From sequence record PV467749.1: 64,000 nucleotides of DNA. One strand, given 5' to 3'. The notes under the pieces were generated by a model. It saw nothing but the letters and a program-made list of their open reading frames with translations. It did no database searches and was not told where the DNA came from. Shown here in pieces: positions 5,791 through 61,028 of this stretch; position 1 is the stretch's first letter, and each line of letters starts with the position of its first letter. The DNA is from a phage. Both the position numbers and the translations under genes were made by a program.

Positions 5791-7099
<1,309 letters not shown>

Positions 7100-10041: not shown

Positions 10042-10069
10042 ATTATAGCACAGTTCTGGTGTTTGTCCT
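10042..10069 (-). promoter_or_regulatory. sigma70-like promoter, AGGACA-N16-TGCTATAAT class
   Basis: Plus attatagca at 10042-10050 and tgtcct at 10064-10069; shared architecture with five other sites. Confidence 0.4.
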
Positions 10070-16518: not shown

Positions 16519-16546
16519 ATTATAGCATCGTATTTTTGTTTGTCTC
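16519..16546 (-). promoter_or_regulatory. sigma70-like promoter GAGACA-N16-TGCTATAAT
   Basis: Plus attatagca at 16519-16527 and tgtctc at 16541-16546, in the intergenic gap upstream of the nuclease gene. Confidence 0.45.
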
Positions 16547-22941: not shown

Positions 22942-22969
22942 ATTATAGCACAAACACTTGTTTTGTCTC
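22942..22969 (-). promoter_or_regulatory. sigma70-like promoter GAGACA-N16-TGCTATAAT upstream of primase
   Basis: Plus attatagca at 22942-22950 and tgtctc at 22964-22969. Confidence 0.45.
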
Positions 22970-27759: not shown

Positions 27760-27815
27760 TTTTATTTTACTTCCTTGTTGTTGTCATACGACACATTATA
27801 TCATGTACAGCGGGA

Positions 27816-29300
27816 TTATCCCGCTGTATTTTCCCAATCCTTAACATCTATGATACTATGAGGATATTGTGCTTCCTTATAGTATTGTAAACGTTCACGT
27901 AAGTGTTTTGCACTATATTTGTTTGTACCACTGATATCAAAGATTTCCACGTGGTCTTTGTCTTCTGCACGACGCAACCCACGACCAATGGACTGTATTG
28001 TACGAACGAAGCTTTTTCCTGGTTCGATTAGAACGACATTATACAAACGAGAAATACTGATACCAGTACTTGCTACCCCATAGGTTGCAATGAGTATTTT
28101 GTTATCAGCCCAGCGAATTTCACCATATGAAGATTCACGGTCTTTCTTTTTGGTTTCCCCACGAACAAATTCTGACTTAGGAATACCCAAAAATTCACAA
28201 AGCAATTCACCAGCTTCAAGTCTATCAACCAGTACTAAAGTGTTTCCAGATTCTGCTAACGCACCTATCAGTGATGCTACATATGCCATTCTATCACGGT
28301 CAGTAACTAAGTACTTCAATTCTTCTGCATATGACGCGAACTTTAAATTACTTTTAAGTTTAATACAGTTCACATTACATGTGCTTAGTATTTTTTTATC
28401 TTGTAATTCTTTAGCTGTGATTTTAAATATCACATCACCAACGTTACATTTAATCTTCGCAGCGACAACTTGGTCTTTAGGGATTGTACCAGTTAATCCC
28501 CAGCGAAGTGGGACGTTATTCATAACTTTAGAGAGTACTTGAACTAATGCATCACCACCAGCACCTTGACACTCATCGACAATCACACAAACCACACCAT
28601 CAATAAAGTCATGAACGTCTTGTTCAGTCAGTTCAATTTCACCTTTCTTTGTTTTCTTCCACAAAGAGTTGAATGACTGCCAGGTAGTGATTGTGTGTTG
28701 GTGACCAAAGTCTTTCTGTGCACCATAGAACACTCCAGTGTCAAGACCACACATAACATAGTCATCATATGTTTGCTGCACCAAATCAGTACTAGGTACG
28801 ATAATCACAGAACGTCCATACTCTTGTACCTTCTTGGATAATGCCGCTGTGATGAGCGTTTTACCAGCCCCTGTAGCTGCTAATAATAAACCATGTGGGT
28901 TTGCAAGGCAAGCATTAACTGCGTTCACCTGATGCTCTCTGAGCTTGATTGACTTACCTTCCATGTGGTGTCCAGCACCAAACACAACATCACTAAAAAT
29001 ATCTTCATCAATTGGTTCAAAATTGAATCCGTAATTGACACGATGATCTTCAAGTTCAATATCAATTTTTGCTTCATCTAAGATTGGCAACAACTTATCC
29101 AACATGTGGTAGTAAGTACTGCCACCTAAGTTCATAAACTGTACCTTACCATCCCAACGACCAATACGACCAGCAGGGGTGAACTTAGCGTATGGAAGTA
29201 CATATTCTGTTGCACGAATCATCTTCTGACGAATTGAGGGATCTAGTCCCTCAAATTTACAATTAACCTCGTCCAGTAAGGTTAGCTTACAAGTTTTCAT
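27816..29300 (-). CDS. uvsW: SF2 helicase (UvsW-like)
   Basis: 494 aa; Walker A LLAATGAGKT, DECQ box, motif VI QSIGRGLRR; sits next to uvsX region. Confidence 0.7.
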   Translation of the reverse strand: MKTCKLTLLDEVNCKFEGLDPSIRQKMIRATEYVLPYAKFTPAGRIGRWDGKVQFMNLGGSTYYHMLDKLLPILDEAKIDIELEDHRVNYGFNFEPIDEDIFSDVVFGAGHHMEGKSIKLREHQVNAVNACLANPHGLLLAATGAGKTLITAALSKKVQEYGRSVIIVPSTDLVQQTYDDYVMCGLDTGVFYGAQKDFGHQHTITTWQSFNSLWKKTKKGEIELTEQDVHDFIDGVVCVIVDECQGAGGDALVQVLSKVMNNVPLRWGLTGTIPKDQVVAAKIKCNVGDVIFKITAKELQDKKILSTCNVNCIKLKSNLKFASYAEELKYLVTDRDRMAYVASLIGALAESGNTLVLVDRLEAGELLCEFLGIPKSEFVRGETKKKDRESSYGEIRWADNKILIATYGVASTGISISRLYNVVLIEPGKSFVRTIQSIGRGLRRAEDKDHVEIFDISGTNKYSAKHLRERLQYYKEAQYPHSIIDVKDWENTAG

Positions 29301-32880: not shown

Positions 32881-33013
32881 ATTGGGCTTCCTTGTCATTA
32901 GTTTGTTTGTTAAGTTTTAACGGGCTATTAACGTTGATTTGTCTTCATTGACTCATCAACAATTTACATTATATCATGGGATTTTTAACCGTCCCAAGGT
33001 TTTTTTACTCTGT

Positions 33014-33038: not shown

Positions 33039-33053
33039 ACATCATTATATCAC

Positions 33054-38298
<5,245 letters not shown>

Positions 38299-41864: not shown

Positions 41865-41894
41865 ATTATATCTCGTGAATGATGCTTGTCTCAA
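41865..41894 (-). promoter_or_regulatory. sigma70-like promoter TTGAGA-N18-TATAAT
   Basis: Plus attata at 41865-41870 and tctcaa at 41889-41894 upstream of the 243-aa gene. Confidence 0.35.
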
Positions 41895-45809: not shown

Positions 45810-45849
45810 TACATTGTATCACTACTTTAAAAGTTGTCTCAATATTTTT

Positions 45850-57970: not shown

Positions 57971-58807
57971 ATGGCAATGAACCCACTAGCTAAGTATACT
58001 AAAATTGAAGAACTTGGTACAAAATTGGTCACAAATGGCGTGATTCCTTATAAAGAAGGAGTTCTTGGCTCTAAAGGTATCAAATGTGGCATTTGTGCTC
58101 GTAGTGCACGCGATGAAATGACACTCAATACACCAGATATGCTTCTAAATGGTGATGCAATTGCTCGTGTTATTGAAAACTGCGTACCTAACGTACTTGA
58201 TGCAGATGAACTTTATGTAAATGACGTAGAGCAACTACTTATCGCTATTAAAGTAGCTTCTAAAGAAGAATCATATGATATTAATGTGACATGTCCTGAA
58301 TGTAACAAAGAAGGCCGTTTTGAGCGTAGCTTATCATATCTACTAGAAACAGCACATACTTTCAGTGAAGTTCCTACTGTACAATTGGATAATGGACTAA
58401 GTTTAGAGTTTAGACCACTTACTTGGAAGGAATATTCTAACTTCGCAGAAAGAATGTTTACAGAACAACAAAAAACTAAATTCCTTGAAACTGCCGAAAT
58501 GGAGCAGGAAGAAAAAGTTAAAGTGTTTGGTGAAGTATTTGAAAGTATGGCACAACTCAACTTTGATATGATCGCAGGAGTTATTGCTAAAGTAATTACT
58601 CCTGAAGGTGATGAAGTAACTGAAAACGAATTCATTTCTGAATGGCTAGGTCAGCAGTCCAAAGGAACACTTAAAATAATTCGTGAAAAAATGGATGAAG
58701 TACTTGAAATTGGTGTTTCCCATACTATGGAAGTTGAATGCAGTGACTGTAATCATCAATGGGAAATTAATGGACTGAAATATGACCCAAGTCATTTTTT
58801 CGCATAA
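57971..58807 (+). CDS. hypothetical protein with two CxxC pairs
   Basis: ORF 57902..58807 (start probably ATG 57971 after GGAG); CGIC...CPEC and CSDC motifs. Confidence 0.45.
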   Translation: MAMNPLAKYTKIEELGTKLVTNGVIPYKEGVLGSKGIKCGICARSARDEMTLNTPDMLLNGDAIARVIENCVPNVLDADELYVNDVEQLLIAIKVASKEESYDINVTCPECNKEGRFERSLSYLLETAHTFSEVPTVQLDNGLSLEFRPLTWKEYSNFAERMFTEQQKTKFLETAEMEQEEKVKVFGEVFESMAQLNFDMIAGVIAKVITPEGDEVTENEFISEWLGQQSKGTLKIIREKMDEVLEIGVSHTMEVECSDCNHQWEINGLKYDPSHFFA

Positions 58808-59016
58808 TGCTTCTCCACTCATCTCCTGAAGAAATACAAGAAGTACTTAAGGAATTTGAGTTGAATAAGTCAGATATTAAAACTGCATTAATGGAGTGTT
58901 CTGTTTATATGGAAAGTGTTGATTACGGAACACTACTTAATATGCCACTAATTGATAGAGACTTATTAGTTAAGTCTTTTAATAAGAAAATTAAAAAACA
59001 AAACGAGAAGCACTAA
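58807..59016 (+). CDS. hypothetical small protein
   Basis: 69-aa ORF coupled to the upstream gene. Confidence 0.35.
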   Translation: MLLHSSPEEIQEVLKEFELNKSDIKTALMECSVYMESVDYGTLLNMPLIDRDLLVKSFNKKIKKQNEKH

Positions 59017-59025
59017 CTCACAAGG

Positions 59026-59055
59026 AGCCAGCACATTGTTGCTGGTTTTTTTTTG
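59026..59055 (+). terminator. intrinsic terminator
   Basis: GCCAGCA/TGCTGGT hairpin followed by T9. Confidence 0.55.
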
Positions 59056-59269
59056 GTTTTAAACTACAGAATTGATTGAATTGAATTATGAAAGGAATTA
59101 ATTATTTTATAGTGAACTCATCTAACTCATTTCATTCGTTAGCTGAAGAATATTCGTTACTACGTAACTCATATTCATTTCTTATAATTAATTATAAAGA
59201 ACTTTAAAAGATTTAATACTTGACGGGATTTGTTGAAGACATTTTCATCCCCCCGCAGGGGAATGAAGA

Positions 59270-59726
59270 CAATAAAAAAGAGACAATTAAGTCTCTTAAT
59301 TCTTGACGCTGATGGTTTCAGCATTTATTGTATTGCGAATTTCTTAAAATTCATTAAGAACGAAAGCGGGTTGCTCTGTTTCTCTCTATCGCAGTCATGT
59401 GCAACGGTCGTCAGTCTTAATCATCCTGACACTCACCTGAAAGTCTATACAATCAAACTTCAGGCTGTTTATTAAATCACTTAATAAACTCCCTTAGCAA
59501 ATCTGGTAAGGTGCGATCCTTATACATCTATCGAGGAACTCTCTGTATGCTTATCGGAGTTCTTTATTGAGCCGTGTCGCCGTGAGGGGTTCAAACTATG
59601 CCCACATCTAACGGGTTTCTTCTGCTCATCGCACTGTTGAACTGCTCATCTGCCATCTACATTTTCGATAGGATCAGGTTCTAATTTATATGCATTTCTG
59701 CATTCAACAGGATTGTCATCACTACA
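59270..59726 (-). ncRNA. candidate non-coding RNA (promoter-to-terminator unit with no ORF)
   Basis: GAGACA-N16-TGCTATAAT promoter at 59733-59760 points into an ~455-nt stretch with no ORF of 60 aa or more (from the ORF track) and no RBS-linked small ORF found by eye; hairpin plus U-run at 59270-59297; local GC above surroundings. Confidence 0.3.
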
Positions 59727-59732
59727 ATTAAC

Positions 59733-59760
59733 ATTATAGCACCAAATTCAAAAGTGTCTC
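59733..59760 (-). promoter_or_regulatory. sigma70-like promoter GAGACA-N16-TGCTATAAT
   Basis: Plus attatagca at 59733-59741 and tgtctc at 59755-59760. Confidence 0.4.
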
Positions 59761-59854
59761 ACTATTATGATAAAAAATTTATAAAAAGTACATAATTCTT
59801 GAACATTGAAGTAACGCATAAATATTTTGATAAGAATTAGTTTAGTGGGGATTT

Positions 59855-60340
59855 ATGAAGAAAAGATTAAAAGATAGTAAAGAAGCTGCAAACTATCGAA
59901 ATGAATTACTAAAGAAGCAAAAAGGAATTGATCCTATAATTAAGGAACCAATAACTAAGCCAGTACTTGATCACTATCACTTCGAGAATCAACATTGTCG
60001 CGGAGTACTCCAGAATGAGATAAACGCCTTTGAGGGTAAGGTTTCCAACGCATGGAACCGATATGGAAAGCATTTAACTGATATGCCATTACATGAAGTA
60101 CTAAGAAACCTTGCAGATTATCTTGAAAAGAACAATAATATCCCACTGGAAGAACAGGTGATTCATCACACGGCACTAACTGTGGATGTAAACAAGTTTA
60201 AAAGGCTCCCTGCAACGCGTCAGAACGAGATATTGGGGTTATGCGGTATAGAGCCATTACCTAATACAAAAGAACGCTCAAAGAGAGCTAGAGAGCTTAT
60301 TAAGAAAGGAATTCTCAATATAAATGAATACAAAAAATGA
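59855..60340 (+). CDS. endonuclease VII-like (gp49-like) His-Me finger nuclease
   Basis: 161 aa; LDHYHFENQHCRGVLQNEINAFEG resembles the endo VII core; late-type CATAAATATTT motif at 59817-59828. Confidence 0.55.
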   Translation: MKKRLKDSKEAANYRNELLKKQKGIDPIIKEPITKPVLDHYHFENQHCRGVLQNEINAFEGKVSNAWNRYGKHLTDMPLHEVLRNLADYLEKNNNIPLEEQVIHHTALTVDVNKFKRLPATRQNEILGLCGIEPLPNTKERSKRARELIKKGILNINEYKK

Positions 60341-61028
60341 TATTTTTATAGATAAAGCAAATATAAAACATAACAACAAATATGAATATACATTAGTTGA
60401 GTATGTAAATAATTACACTAAAGTTAAAATTATATGTAAGAAACATGGTATGTTTTCACAAACTCCAAATCACCATTTAAAAGGAAGTGGATGTAATGAA
60501 TGTTACTTAGAAAGCAAGCACGATACTAAAGATGACTTCATAAAAAAATCCATGAAAGTTCATGGTGAATTATATGATTACTCAAATGTGATATATAAAT
60601 CTTCAAAGAAAAAAGTTGAAATTATATGCAATAAACATGGTTCTTTTTATCAGAGGCCACATGAACATATATCAGGTAAAGGTTGTTCAGAATGTGGAGT
60701 TGGTGGTTACAAGAGAAGTAAACCAGGTCGTTTATATGTATATGAAGTTTTACAAGACGACAAAACTATAGCATACAAATACGGAATAACTAATGGTACT
60801 ATTAATAATAGAAAATATTACCATGAGTATCACTCTAACTTAAAATTTAATTGTGTTTATGAACTATATGATGAAGATGGTAATGTTCCATATAATATAG
60901 AAAAAGCAATAAAAGCTGGCATGAAAAGTGTTTTTTTATCAAAAACTATTTTAGAAGTTGGGTATACCGAAACGATAGAACCGTCTTTATATGAAGATTT
61001 GATTAATATAATAAAAAAAGGGAGCTAA
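60324..61028 (+). CDS. zinc-ribbon repeat + T5orf172-like domain protein (free-standing endonuclease-like)
   Basis: 234 aa; two KYEYT..VEY...C..HG.F.Q.P..H..G.GC.EC modules then KPGRLYVYEV...KYGIT; paralog of 48323..49420. Confidence 0.55.
   Translation: MNTKNDIFIDKANIKHNNKYEYTLVEYVNNYTKVKIICKKHGMFSQTPNHHLKGSGCNECYLESKHDTKDDFIKKSMKVHGELYDYSNVIYKSSKKKVEIICNKHGSFYQRPHEHISGKGCSECGVGGYKRSKPGRLYVYEVLQDDKTIAYKYGITNGTINNRKYYHEYHSNLKFNCVYELYDEDGNVPYNIEKAIKAGMKSVFLSKTILEVGYTETIEPSLYEDLINIIKKGS

Follow-up and report, generated by a model that had tools for sequence, protein, structure and literature searches.

The DNA considered here is a 64,000-nucleotide stretch of sequence record PV467749.1, referred to below as the window, from an Asteriusvirus (121Q-like jumbo coliphage). 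Positions 59000-59900 share 99.9-100% identity with phages fEgEco12, EC.P1, BF17 and Ecwhy_1, and 92-96% with 121Q, PBECO4 and G17. A gap of ~840 bp between two plus-strand genes, a homolog of 121Q gp595 and endonuclease VII, is occupied by the element described below (Table 1). The gap is empty in the careful annotations of 121Q and G17 and carries nothing but a 'repeat_region' in the UE-S1 record. An earlier note on this DNA had singled it out as an unusual, GC-enriched gap with no ORF of 60 aa or more on either strand. The enrichment was reproduced: the promoter-to-terminator unit has a GC content of 39.7%, against 21-23% in the flanks and 36.1% in the whole window. No stretches of the window lacking an ORF of at least 60 aa are longer than two that lie here, 59476-59854 and 59017-59229; however, these are separated by an 81-aa ORF antisense to the RNA, so the coding claim stood only in part. 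The gap does hold the largest ORF-free stretch of the window, yet it is not a one-off, being one copy of a multi-copy family. At its far end, a hairpin with U/A runs terminates the convergent 69-aa ORF and possibly also stops read-through of the RNA; the G17 and UE-S1 records mark it as a terminator. On the other side of the gap, a 234-aa plus-strand ORF (60324-61028) with a treble-clef zinc-finger domain (DUF4379) lies between the endonuclease VII gene and an SbcC-like gene. The latter two genes are directly adjacent in 121Q, with no DUF4379 ORF between them, and the ORF therefore resembles an inserted free-standing gene, possibly a homing endonuclease.

A minus-strand promoter points into the gap, with transcription predicted to start at ~59726. 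It belongs to the class GAGACA-N13-TGNTATAAT, for which 12 sites were found in the window at up to two mismatches, all 12 on the minus strand, where 1.2 were expected. The recurring GAGACA class proposed earlier is thus real, and the 16-nt spacing given for it is the distance between the two hexamers, equivalent to 13 nt up to the extended -10. This promoter class is common to many protein-coding genes. The extended -10 (TGnTATAAT) is aligned in all members of the RNA family. P17, a hairpin resembling an intrinsic terminator, follows with its U-run and closes a 453-nt unit counted from the predicted start; the RNA from promoter to terminator is the predicted minimal product.

Table 1. Features of the locus and of the structured RNA, with promoter-class sites and bacterial copies. 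Positions refer to the window unless an accession is given.
Feature	Position	Strand	Remarks
69-aa ORF	58807-59016	+	homolog of 121Q gp595; adjoins baseplate hub; convergent to RNA element
Hairpin with U/A runs	59022-59051	.	far end of gap
TTG-start ORF, 81 aa	59230-59475	+	antisense to RNA
Endonuclease VII	59855-60340	+	borders gap on other side
Promoter	59733-59760	-	GAGACA-N13-TGCTATAAT
-35-like GAGACA	59760-59755	-	part of RNA promoter
Extended -10 TGCTATAAT	59741-59733	-	part of RNA promoter
Promoter-class sites	6107-6134, 10042-10069, 16519-16546, 22942-22969	-	GAGACA-N13-TGNTATAAT
Promoter-class sites	27795-27822, 32968-32995, 33044-33071, 38271-38298	-	GAGACA-N13-TGNTATAAT
Promoter-class sites	41865-41892, 45813-45840, 59733-59760	-	GAGACA-N13-TGNTATAAT
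5' domain (P1-P10)	59726-59467	-	comparative fold
P1 5' strand	59710-59704	-	pseudoknot with P4 loop 59640-59634
P2	59703-59690	-	GAAA-tetraloop hairpin
P3/P3a	59677-59650	-	hairpin, conserved loop GAAAAUGUA
P4	59645-59631	-	loop pairs with P1 5' strand
P5/P6	59628-59568	-	
P8	59562-59536	-	
P9	59522-59507	-	
AAGGGAG	~59495-59489	-	invariant
P10	59489-59467	-	variable hairpin
Core 3' domain (P11-P16, PK-A, PK-B)	59469-59301	-	
P11	59464-59436	-	
PK-A	59453-59447 with 59333-59327	-	first strand in P11 loop
P12	59431-59409	-	
PK-B	59405-59401 with 59374-59370	-	GUUGC with GCAAC, the latter inside P14 loop
P13	59393-59389 with 59338-59334	-	
P14	59386-59362	-	
P15	59360-59341	-	
P16	59322-59308	-	set by inspection and per-sequence folding
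Box 1	59308-59302	-	CGUCAAG
P17	59297-59274	-	intrinsic-terminator-like hairpin, AAGAGAC-UUAAUU-GUCUCUU then U6
P18	59267-59244	-	GC hairpin UUCAUUCCCC-UGCG-GGGGGAUGAA, ~10 bp, highly conserved
Box 2	59226-59219	-	CCGUCAAG, direct repeat of box 1
P19	59142-59122	-	hairpin CUAAC-GAAUGAAAUGA-GUUAG, ~80 nt 3' of box 2
E. coli LR-29-1 copy	NZ_AP027515.1 3478976-3479514 (L176:11882-12598)		island
Further bacterial copy	NZ_CM130020.1 245243-245781		

Related elements are widespread in jumbo phages. A 511-nt query taken from the window element matches 72 phage records, and the element is 66-75% identical in Asteriusvirus, Munch-like, Mimasvirus, Eneladusvirus, Xanthomonas and RaK2-like phages (at least five genera). 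At every match examined it lies in an unannotated gap of 600-800 bp. Asteriusvirus genomes have four sites each, RaK2-like Klebsiella phages two, and five are found in Munch-like Salmonella phages, GAP32, CBB and Serratia BF, and in Erwinia, Yersinia and Xanthomonas phages. Within the 64-kb window, neither blastn nor a covariance model found a further copy. A profile search of the whole 121Q genome returned exactly four, at 90.3, 192.7, 247.4 and 326.6 kb, all on one strand, each filling an otherwise unexplained gap and three of the four with co-oriented genes downstream. Another unannotated gap in 121Q, of ~2 kb (KM507819.1, 135194-137161), does not hold a member of the family by profile or covariance model. 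Copies are dispersed, strictly co-oriented and syntenic between genera. A scan of IMG/VR for the core motif gave 2-4 copies per ~350-kb contig, on the same strand within each contig; it used a gapped pattern of 19 bases, an earlier 14-base pattern having been too degenerate and yielding mostly chance matches. Six IMG/VR matches were rejected as lying outside the family, since they look like coding sequence or are unrelated. In a neighbour-joining tree, copies cluster by paralog type across genera rather than by genome, which indicates that the duplications are older than the genera and that each paralog has been retained. The lineage of the window paralog meets convergent genes downstream in every genus examined and is thus not the leader of a downstream gene.

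Coding potential does not account for this conservation. If the region encoded one or more small proteins, the candidates would be the 81-aa antisense ORF and minus-strand ORFs of 21-49 aa. These ORFs exist mechanically, and GenBank records place 'hypothetical protein' CDSs over copies of the element, for instance 121Q gp516 (KM507819.1, 247799-247954), which overlies a paralog; the same overlay is seen in fEgEco12, WPEC3/5, JP4, SD-2_S15 and other records. However, a comparative search of 46 members, the analysis that the earlier note had named as able to overturn a non-coding reading, found no ORF kept in position, frame or length, and in several relatives the longest ORF on either strand has only 31-41 aa. 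The 81-aa ORF has no Pfam match, sequence changes are compensatory within helices, and the hairpin tips vary by indels of arbitrary length. A protein-coding explanation is therefore extremely improbable, and the CDSs annotated over the elements are probably spurious, which means that many GenBank records stand to be corrected.

A comparative fold was obtained from an alignment of the 46 members (A2; pairwise identity below 92%), the tested structure being derived from the window sequence and RNAalifold. It comprises two domains, ~19 helices, GNRA loops and three pseudoknots, which join P1 with the P4 loop, the P11 loop with J13/16 (PK-A), and J12/13 with the P14 loop (PK-B). The junctions GACCGU, GAAAC, ACCCGC, AAGGGAG, GAUAG and UAAAG are invariant. 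The short direct repeats noticed earlier do occur (GAUGAGCAG twice and CACGG twice, in the RNA sense), but they are helix strands and junctions of this fold rather than independent repeats. Some members carry an optional module of ~35-45 nt (…GCGAU-N-AUUUUUAUACAAUAU-N-GAUCCGUCCAAAAUU…) at either of two hairpin tips, differing by member: that of P10 (A2 columns ~370-430) or that of P15 (columns 560-600). Examples are found at L005:1159-1716, L003:1701-2246 and L176:11925-12559, and both tips bear it in the E. coli island copy. To judge from these positions, it behaves like a portable RNA structural module.

The fold is supported by covariation. Over the full length (104 pairs), 82.4% of alignment cells are paired, compared with 68.4% after column shuffling (0 of 500 shuffles came up to the real alignment) and 41-44% after sliding partners by 1-3 columns. 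Both sides have changed in 75 of the 104 pairs, and the covariation score is 0.382 against 0.148 for shuffled and at most 0.108 for slid partners. The core 3' domain (alignment A3, 44 pairs) is stronger still, with 93.6% of cells paired against 74.4% shuffled (again 0/500) and 36-44% slid, two-sided changes in 35 of 44 pairs, and a score of 0.547 against 0.195. All cells are paired in P4, P5, P6, PK-B and P14, followed by PK-A (99.7%, two-sided changes in each of its seven pairs), P13 (99.1%), P3/P3a (91.8%) and P8 (91.1%); in the 5'-domain helices (P3/3a, P4, P5, P6, P8) most pairs show two-sided changes. Where indels blurred the alignment, an alignment-free pairing test was used, with strands combined from different members as the control. 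At least six contiguous base pairs form in 85% of members for the P1 pseudoknot (18% in the control) and in 100% for PK-A (23%). RNAalifold on its own recovers most helices, and covariance model R1 matches the window core exactly (134 bits, E=3e-32). A long-range GCRAY/GUUGC pairing that would compete with PK-B was rejected, as only the local PK-B partner co-varies with GUUGC variants.

The sense of the folded strand is also apparent. Folding energy is low (z = -2.55), and folding z-scores are alike on both strands; in the core, G·U pairs outnumber A·C mismatches by 149 to 29 (~5:1) on the promoter strand, which identifies it as the folded one. One rival explanation is that the locus acts only as double-stranded DNA, as a protein-binding, packaging or recombination site, and that the RNA fold is irrelevant. 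The copies are dispersed, and hardly any covariation accompanies the conservation of P18, box 1 and box 2. However, more than 75 base pairs keep pairing through two-sided changes, and a fivefold excess of G·U over A·C on one strand denotes a single-strand rather than a duplex constraint. The phage genomes have defined terminal repeats of ~21 kb (PMC13070987), which makes a packaging signal in 4-5 copies unlikely. A pure DNA element is accordingly very improbable. Covariation across the aligned members instead shows that the product of this promoter-equipped, ORF-free gene is constrained as a complex folded single strand. The non-coding RNA proposed in the earlier note is thus strongly supported by conservation, by covariation that includes three pseudoknots and was found in the comparison with related phages it had suggested, by the G·U excess, by the lack of a conserved ORF and by a promoter in all members.

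The conserved unit does not end at the terminator-like hairpin. The earlier note had taken a hairpin with a U-run as the boundary of the RNA; such a hairpin is present 453 nt downstream, but it is internal to a conserved unit that reaches ~59120 (~600-650 bp overall), with P18, a CGUCAAG box and the covarying P19 lying 3' of it. P17 has a covarying stem (89% of stem cells paired, five of six pairs changed on both sides), is missing in ~20 of the 46 members (~40%), and in island copies retains the stem without the U-run. The GC-rich hairpin reported earlier was found again as P18 (59244-59267, ~10 bp); it has at least 6 bp in all members and hardly varies, so it is uninformative for covariation. 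Boxes 1 and 2 change together across the family (CGUCAAG, CGUCAG, CGUCAAW, CUUCAAG). In P19-type hairpins a loop of the GAAyGnAGUGA type is conserved and the stems covary: 17 of 45 members fit the strict pattern with a stem of at least 4 bp, using 14 different stems, and looser variants elsewhere were judged by eye. Such hairpins lie 60-130 nt downstream of box 2 in most members, twice in some. Judged by eye, a GNA/GNRA mini-loop closed by tandem sheared G·A pairs could arise within the loop. Downstream of the element, most paralogs have a TTGACA promoter-like hexamer within an inverted repeat (AAAATTCTTTGACATTCGAAGAATGG), as at loci L005 (~1790-1830), L008 and L175, degenerate in the window copy. 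From its sequence, the arrangement suggests a promoter and operator serving the following transcription unit.

The position of P17 bears on a second rival explanation, that the element is a cis-acting leader whose nascent RNA senses a signal or modifies the polymerase, as riboswitches and HK022 put RNAs do, and so controls read-through of P17 into downstream genes or antisense transcription. P17 does sit mid-unit, between P16/box 1 and P18/box 2; co-oriented genes follow three of the four 121Q copies, and the TTGACA site lies just downstream in most members. Against this, the genes downstream of the window lineage are convergent in every genus examined, P17 is missing from ~40% of members, and island copies have no U-run behind it. 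A switch in which box 2 pairs with the 5' strand of P16 was tried and performs at chance level, leaving the alternative pairing unsupported. The element, at least 450 nt long, also far exceeds any antitermination RNA known to us. Taken together, a leader function appears quite unlikely.

Another setting of the element is found in bacterial chromosomes. Of 5,426 complete E. coli genomes, two have the element, each as a single intact copy at 69.5% identity to that of the window. Promoter, both domains, P17, P18 and box 2 are all present, and PGAP places no annotation over these copies. The copy of strain LR-29-1 sits in a ~10-kb island between ffs and ybaA, together with a disrupted tyrosine integrase, IS3 and the candidate defence system PDC-M45 (DuOB/DUF488/DUF4326). 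Among GTDB species representatives, copies occur in Citrobacter, Silvania, Serratia (two species), Buttiauxella, Enterobacter and other Enterobacteriaceae; bacterial loci with intact homologs include L207, L202, L220, L212, L182, L190, L234 and L214. In these small temperate integrative islands, the recurrent order is an integrase (large serine or tyrosine), the RNA, a CI-like repressor on the opposite strand, a Ner-like gene and a membrane/coiled-coil protein. At L182, L202, L212 and L234, a 13-bp perfect inverted repeat, CCCTATAAATATC-GGTA-GATATTTATAGGG, comes directly after the integrase gene and ~45 nt ahead of the RNA gene's -10; it could be an attachment site, an operator or a terminator. 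A tblastn search with all island ORFs found only one protein in common with 121Q, an unrelated DUF4326 homolog near nrdD/nrdG. The E. coli and Citrobacter copies fall within the phage copies in the neighbour-joining tree. Since intact copies with their own promoter sit in islands that share no phage protein but the unrelated DUF4326, the element appears to be an autonomous gene, and because phages and islands share only the RNA, no dedicated phage protein would be needed.

The covariance-model, tRNA and group I intron scans proposed in the earlier note led to no known family. Rfam 15 (4227 models, including GOLLD, ROOL, OLE, HEARO, raiA, RNase P, 6S, tmRNA, group I/II introns, riboswitches and RNAI) gave no gathering-level match in the whole 64-kb window. 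At E<=10, positions 59000-59900 gave scattered noise, the best match scoring 25.9 bits against a gathering threshold of 51.4 and none recurring in other members, and ten other members gave nothing inside the element at E<=1. ARAGORN found no tRNA or tmRNA gene in the window. A likeness of short stretches to E. coli RNase P RNA found no confirmation in Rfam. A group I intron was also rejected: the element has its own promoter and lies between complete genes in all contexts, interrupting no host gene; its pseudoknot, compared with P3-P7, has the strand order 1-2-3-1'-3'-hairpin-2', and the 7 nt between strands 1 and 2 leave no P4-P6 equivalent there. The Rfam group I and II intron models do not match the element. 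In the literature on jumbo phages, these genera, non-coding RNAs and large ornate RNAs, neither a description of the family nor transcriptome or other expression data for phages carrying it were found. The family thus lies far from all curated families, and we could not find it described.

The main rival explanation concerns replication. The structured transcript could be the pre-primer of a transcription-primed origin, as ColE1 RNA II and the transcripts of T4 oriF and oriG are. In such a model, the G-rich 3' module (P18, GGGGGG) would hold a persistent RNA-DNA hybrid beside an AT-rich repeat region, and RNase H processing would yield a leading-strand primer; a jumbo genome would have four or five such origins and a rep-less island one, served by host enzymes alone. 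Several observations fit. Four or five copies are dispersed, strictly co-oriented and syntenic in a 350-kb genome. The layout runs from a strong promoter through ~450-500 nt of structured RNA, a U-run, a C4/G6 hairpin and a box to an AT-rich region: the ~150 bp 3' of the box have 23% GC in the window copy, and the mean of the members is 31% against 40% in the RNA body. CGAA-type motifs recur in this region (2.0 per 150 nt, where ~0.5 are expected). The phage is annotated with a T4-type replisome, UvsW-like helicase, RNase H and 5'-3' exonuclease, and the lack of a required common protein partner suits integrase-adjacent island copies with no rep gene in view.

On the other side, no R-loop origin known to us requires three pseudoknots or so many invariant junction nucleotides, and those of T4 lack homology to each other. 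None of 72,556 plasmids carries the element. A conserved antisense promoter for a copy-control RNA is absent too. A ColE1-type antisense RNA I was considered on account of two weak plus-strand promoter-like sites and rejected, with no RNAI match; the site at 59303-59331 is not conserved, because its -10 lies inside the covarying PK-A strand. GC skew in 121Q tracks gene orientation without inflection at the four element sites, which is uninformative on origins. An origin is judged unlikely, though less so than a leader.

The reading we prefer is that a large structured non-coding RNA, of a family undescribed so far, has its own stand-alone gene in the gap. Host sigma-70 RNA polymerase would start at ~59726 from the extended -10 promoter, a 453-nt RNA would terminate in part at the P17 hairpin and U-run, and read-through RNAs of ~510-605 nt would include P18, box 2 and P19. 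The folded RNA would then work in trans: it could be a ribozyme, form an RNA-only assembly, or serve host factors as a scaffold or decoy. Trans action is favoured, with about half of our belief placed in it, because junction invariance and pseudoknotting are typical of such RNAs, because the window lineage has no co-oriented downstream gene in any genus, and because phages and islands have nothing but the RNA in common. The dispersed, co-oriented and syntenic copies speak against it, as cis-acting elements are more often arranged in this way than RNA genes, and conservation past the terminator into a G-rich hairpin and AT-rich repeats gives a layout that also fits an origin. In each phage, the ancient paralogs (2-5) would be variants of a single fold, each sub-specialised. 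A more specific version, somewhat short of even likelihood, is a new class of pseudoknotted ribozyme or self-assembling RNA of ~450-650 nt that needs no dedicated protein, whose paralogs predate the genera and which small temperate islands of Enterobacterales may have captured for its activity or as a decoy against jumbo phages.

Large, intricately folded bacterial and phage RNAs are rare, and to our knowledge nearly every class studied has turned out to be a ribozyme, the core of a ribonucleoprotein or an unexpected RNA-only assembly. The present family is carried by culturable coliphages (121Q, PBECO4, G17, phAPEC6 and others) and by E. coli itself. Its clear promoters and its covariation-defined structure with three pseudoknots make it testable, with paralogs and island copies as ready-made variants. 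If the RNA acts in trans, it would be a new RNA class in phage-host conflict biology. If it marks origins, RaK2-like jumbo phages would gain their first defined family of replication origins, an unusual one in its dependence on RNA structure.

Several known systems share some of these properties. The HK022 put RNAs are ~70 nt long with two stem-loops; like the element, they lie just downstream of promoters, are co-oriented with long transcription units and need no phage protein, whereas the element has at least 450 nt and its window copy has no co-oriented downstream genes. ColE1 RNA II and T4 oriF and oriG resemble it in having a strong promoter and a structured transcript of ~500 nt that ends near a G-rich/C-rich element and an AT-rich region; the T4 R-loop origins also occur in several copies per phage genome, and host enzymes suffice in these systems. 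The element, however, has no homology to them, no conserved antisense regulator and no plasmid carrier, and is much more structurally complex and sequence-invariant.

Another comparison is offered by PA5oct, a distant jumbo-phage relative described as related to 121Q, RaK2 and GAP32. In it, RNA-seq defined four long non-coding RNAs (ncRNA001-004) of 236-619 nt, from actively transcribed regions that hold no ORF and lie on the main coding strand (PMC7318152). As homologs these RNAs were rejected by both a profile HMM (nhmmer --max) and the core covariance model R1. ncRNA004 (L178:517-1135, 619 nt) ends in UUUCCUUCCC-AAAC-GGGGAGGAAA, a P18-like hairpin. Its 1.3-kb gap between minus-strand genes and its similar C-rich/G-rich end hairpin recall the element, of which it may be an analog.

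GOLLD and ROOL are large ornate RNAs of phages and prophages that form RNA-only multimeric cages (PMC12286853). Neither of their Rfam models matches the element in sequence or structure, even with E<=10 allowed. It also differs from them in being carried by Enterobacterales and Xanthomonas jumbo myophages, in having multiple diverged paralogs within each genome, and in lying away from the tRNA cluster (72-78 kb in 121Q). In common with them, it belongs to a class of ~500-800 nt with many helices, pseudoknots and highly conserved junctions, and is found in phage or prophage-like carriers without a dedicated protein partner.
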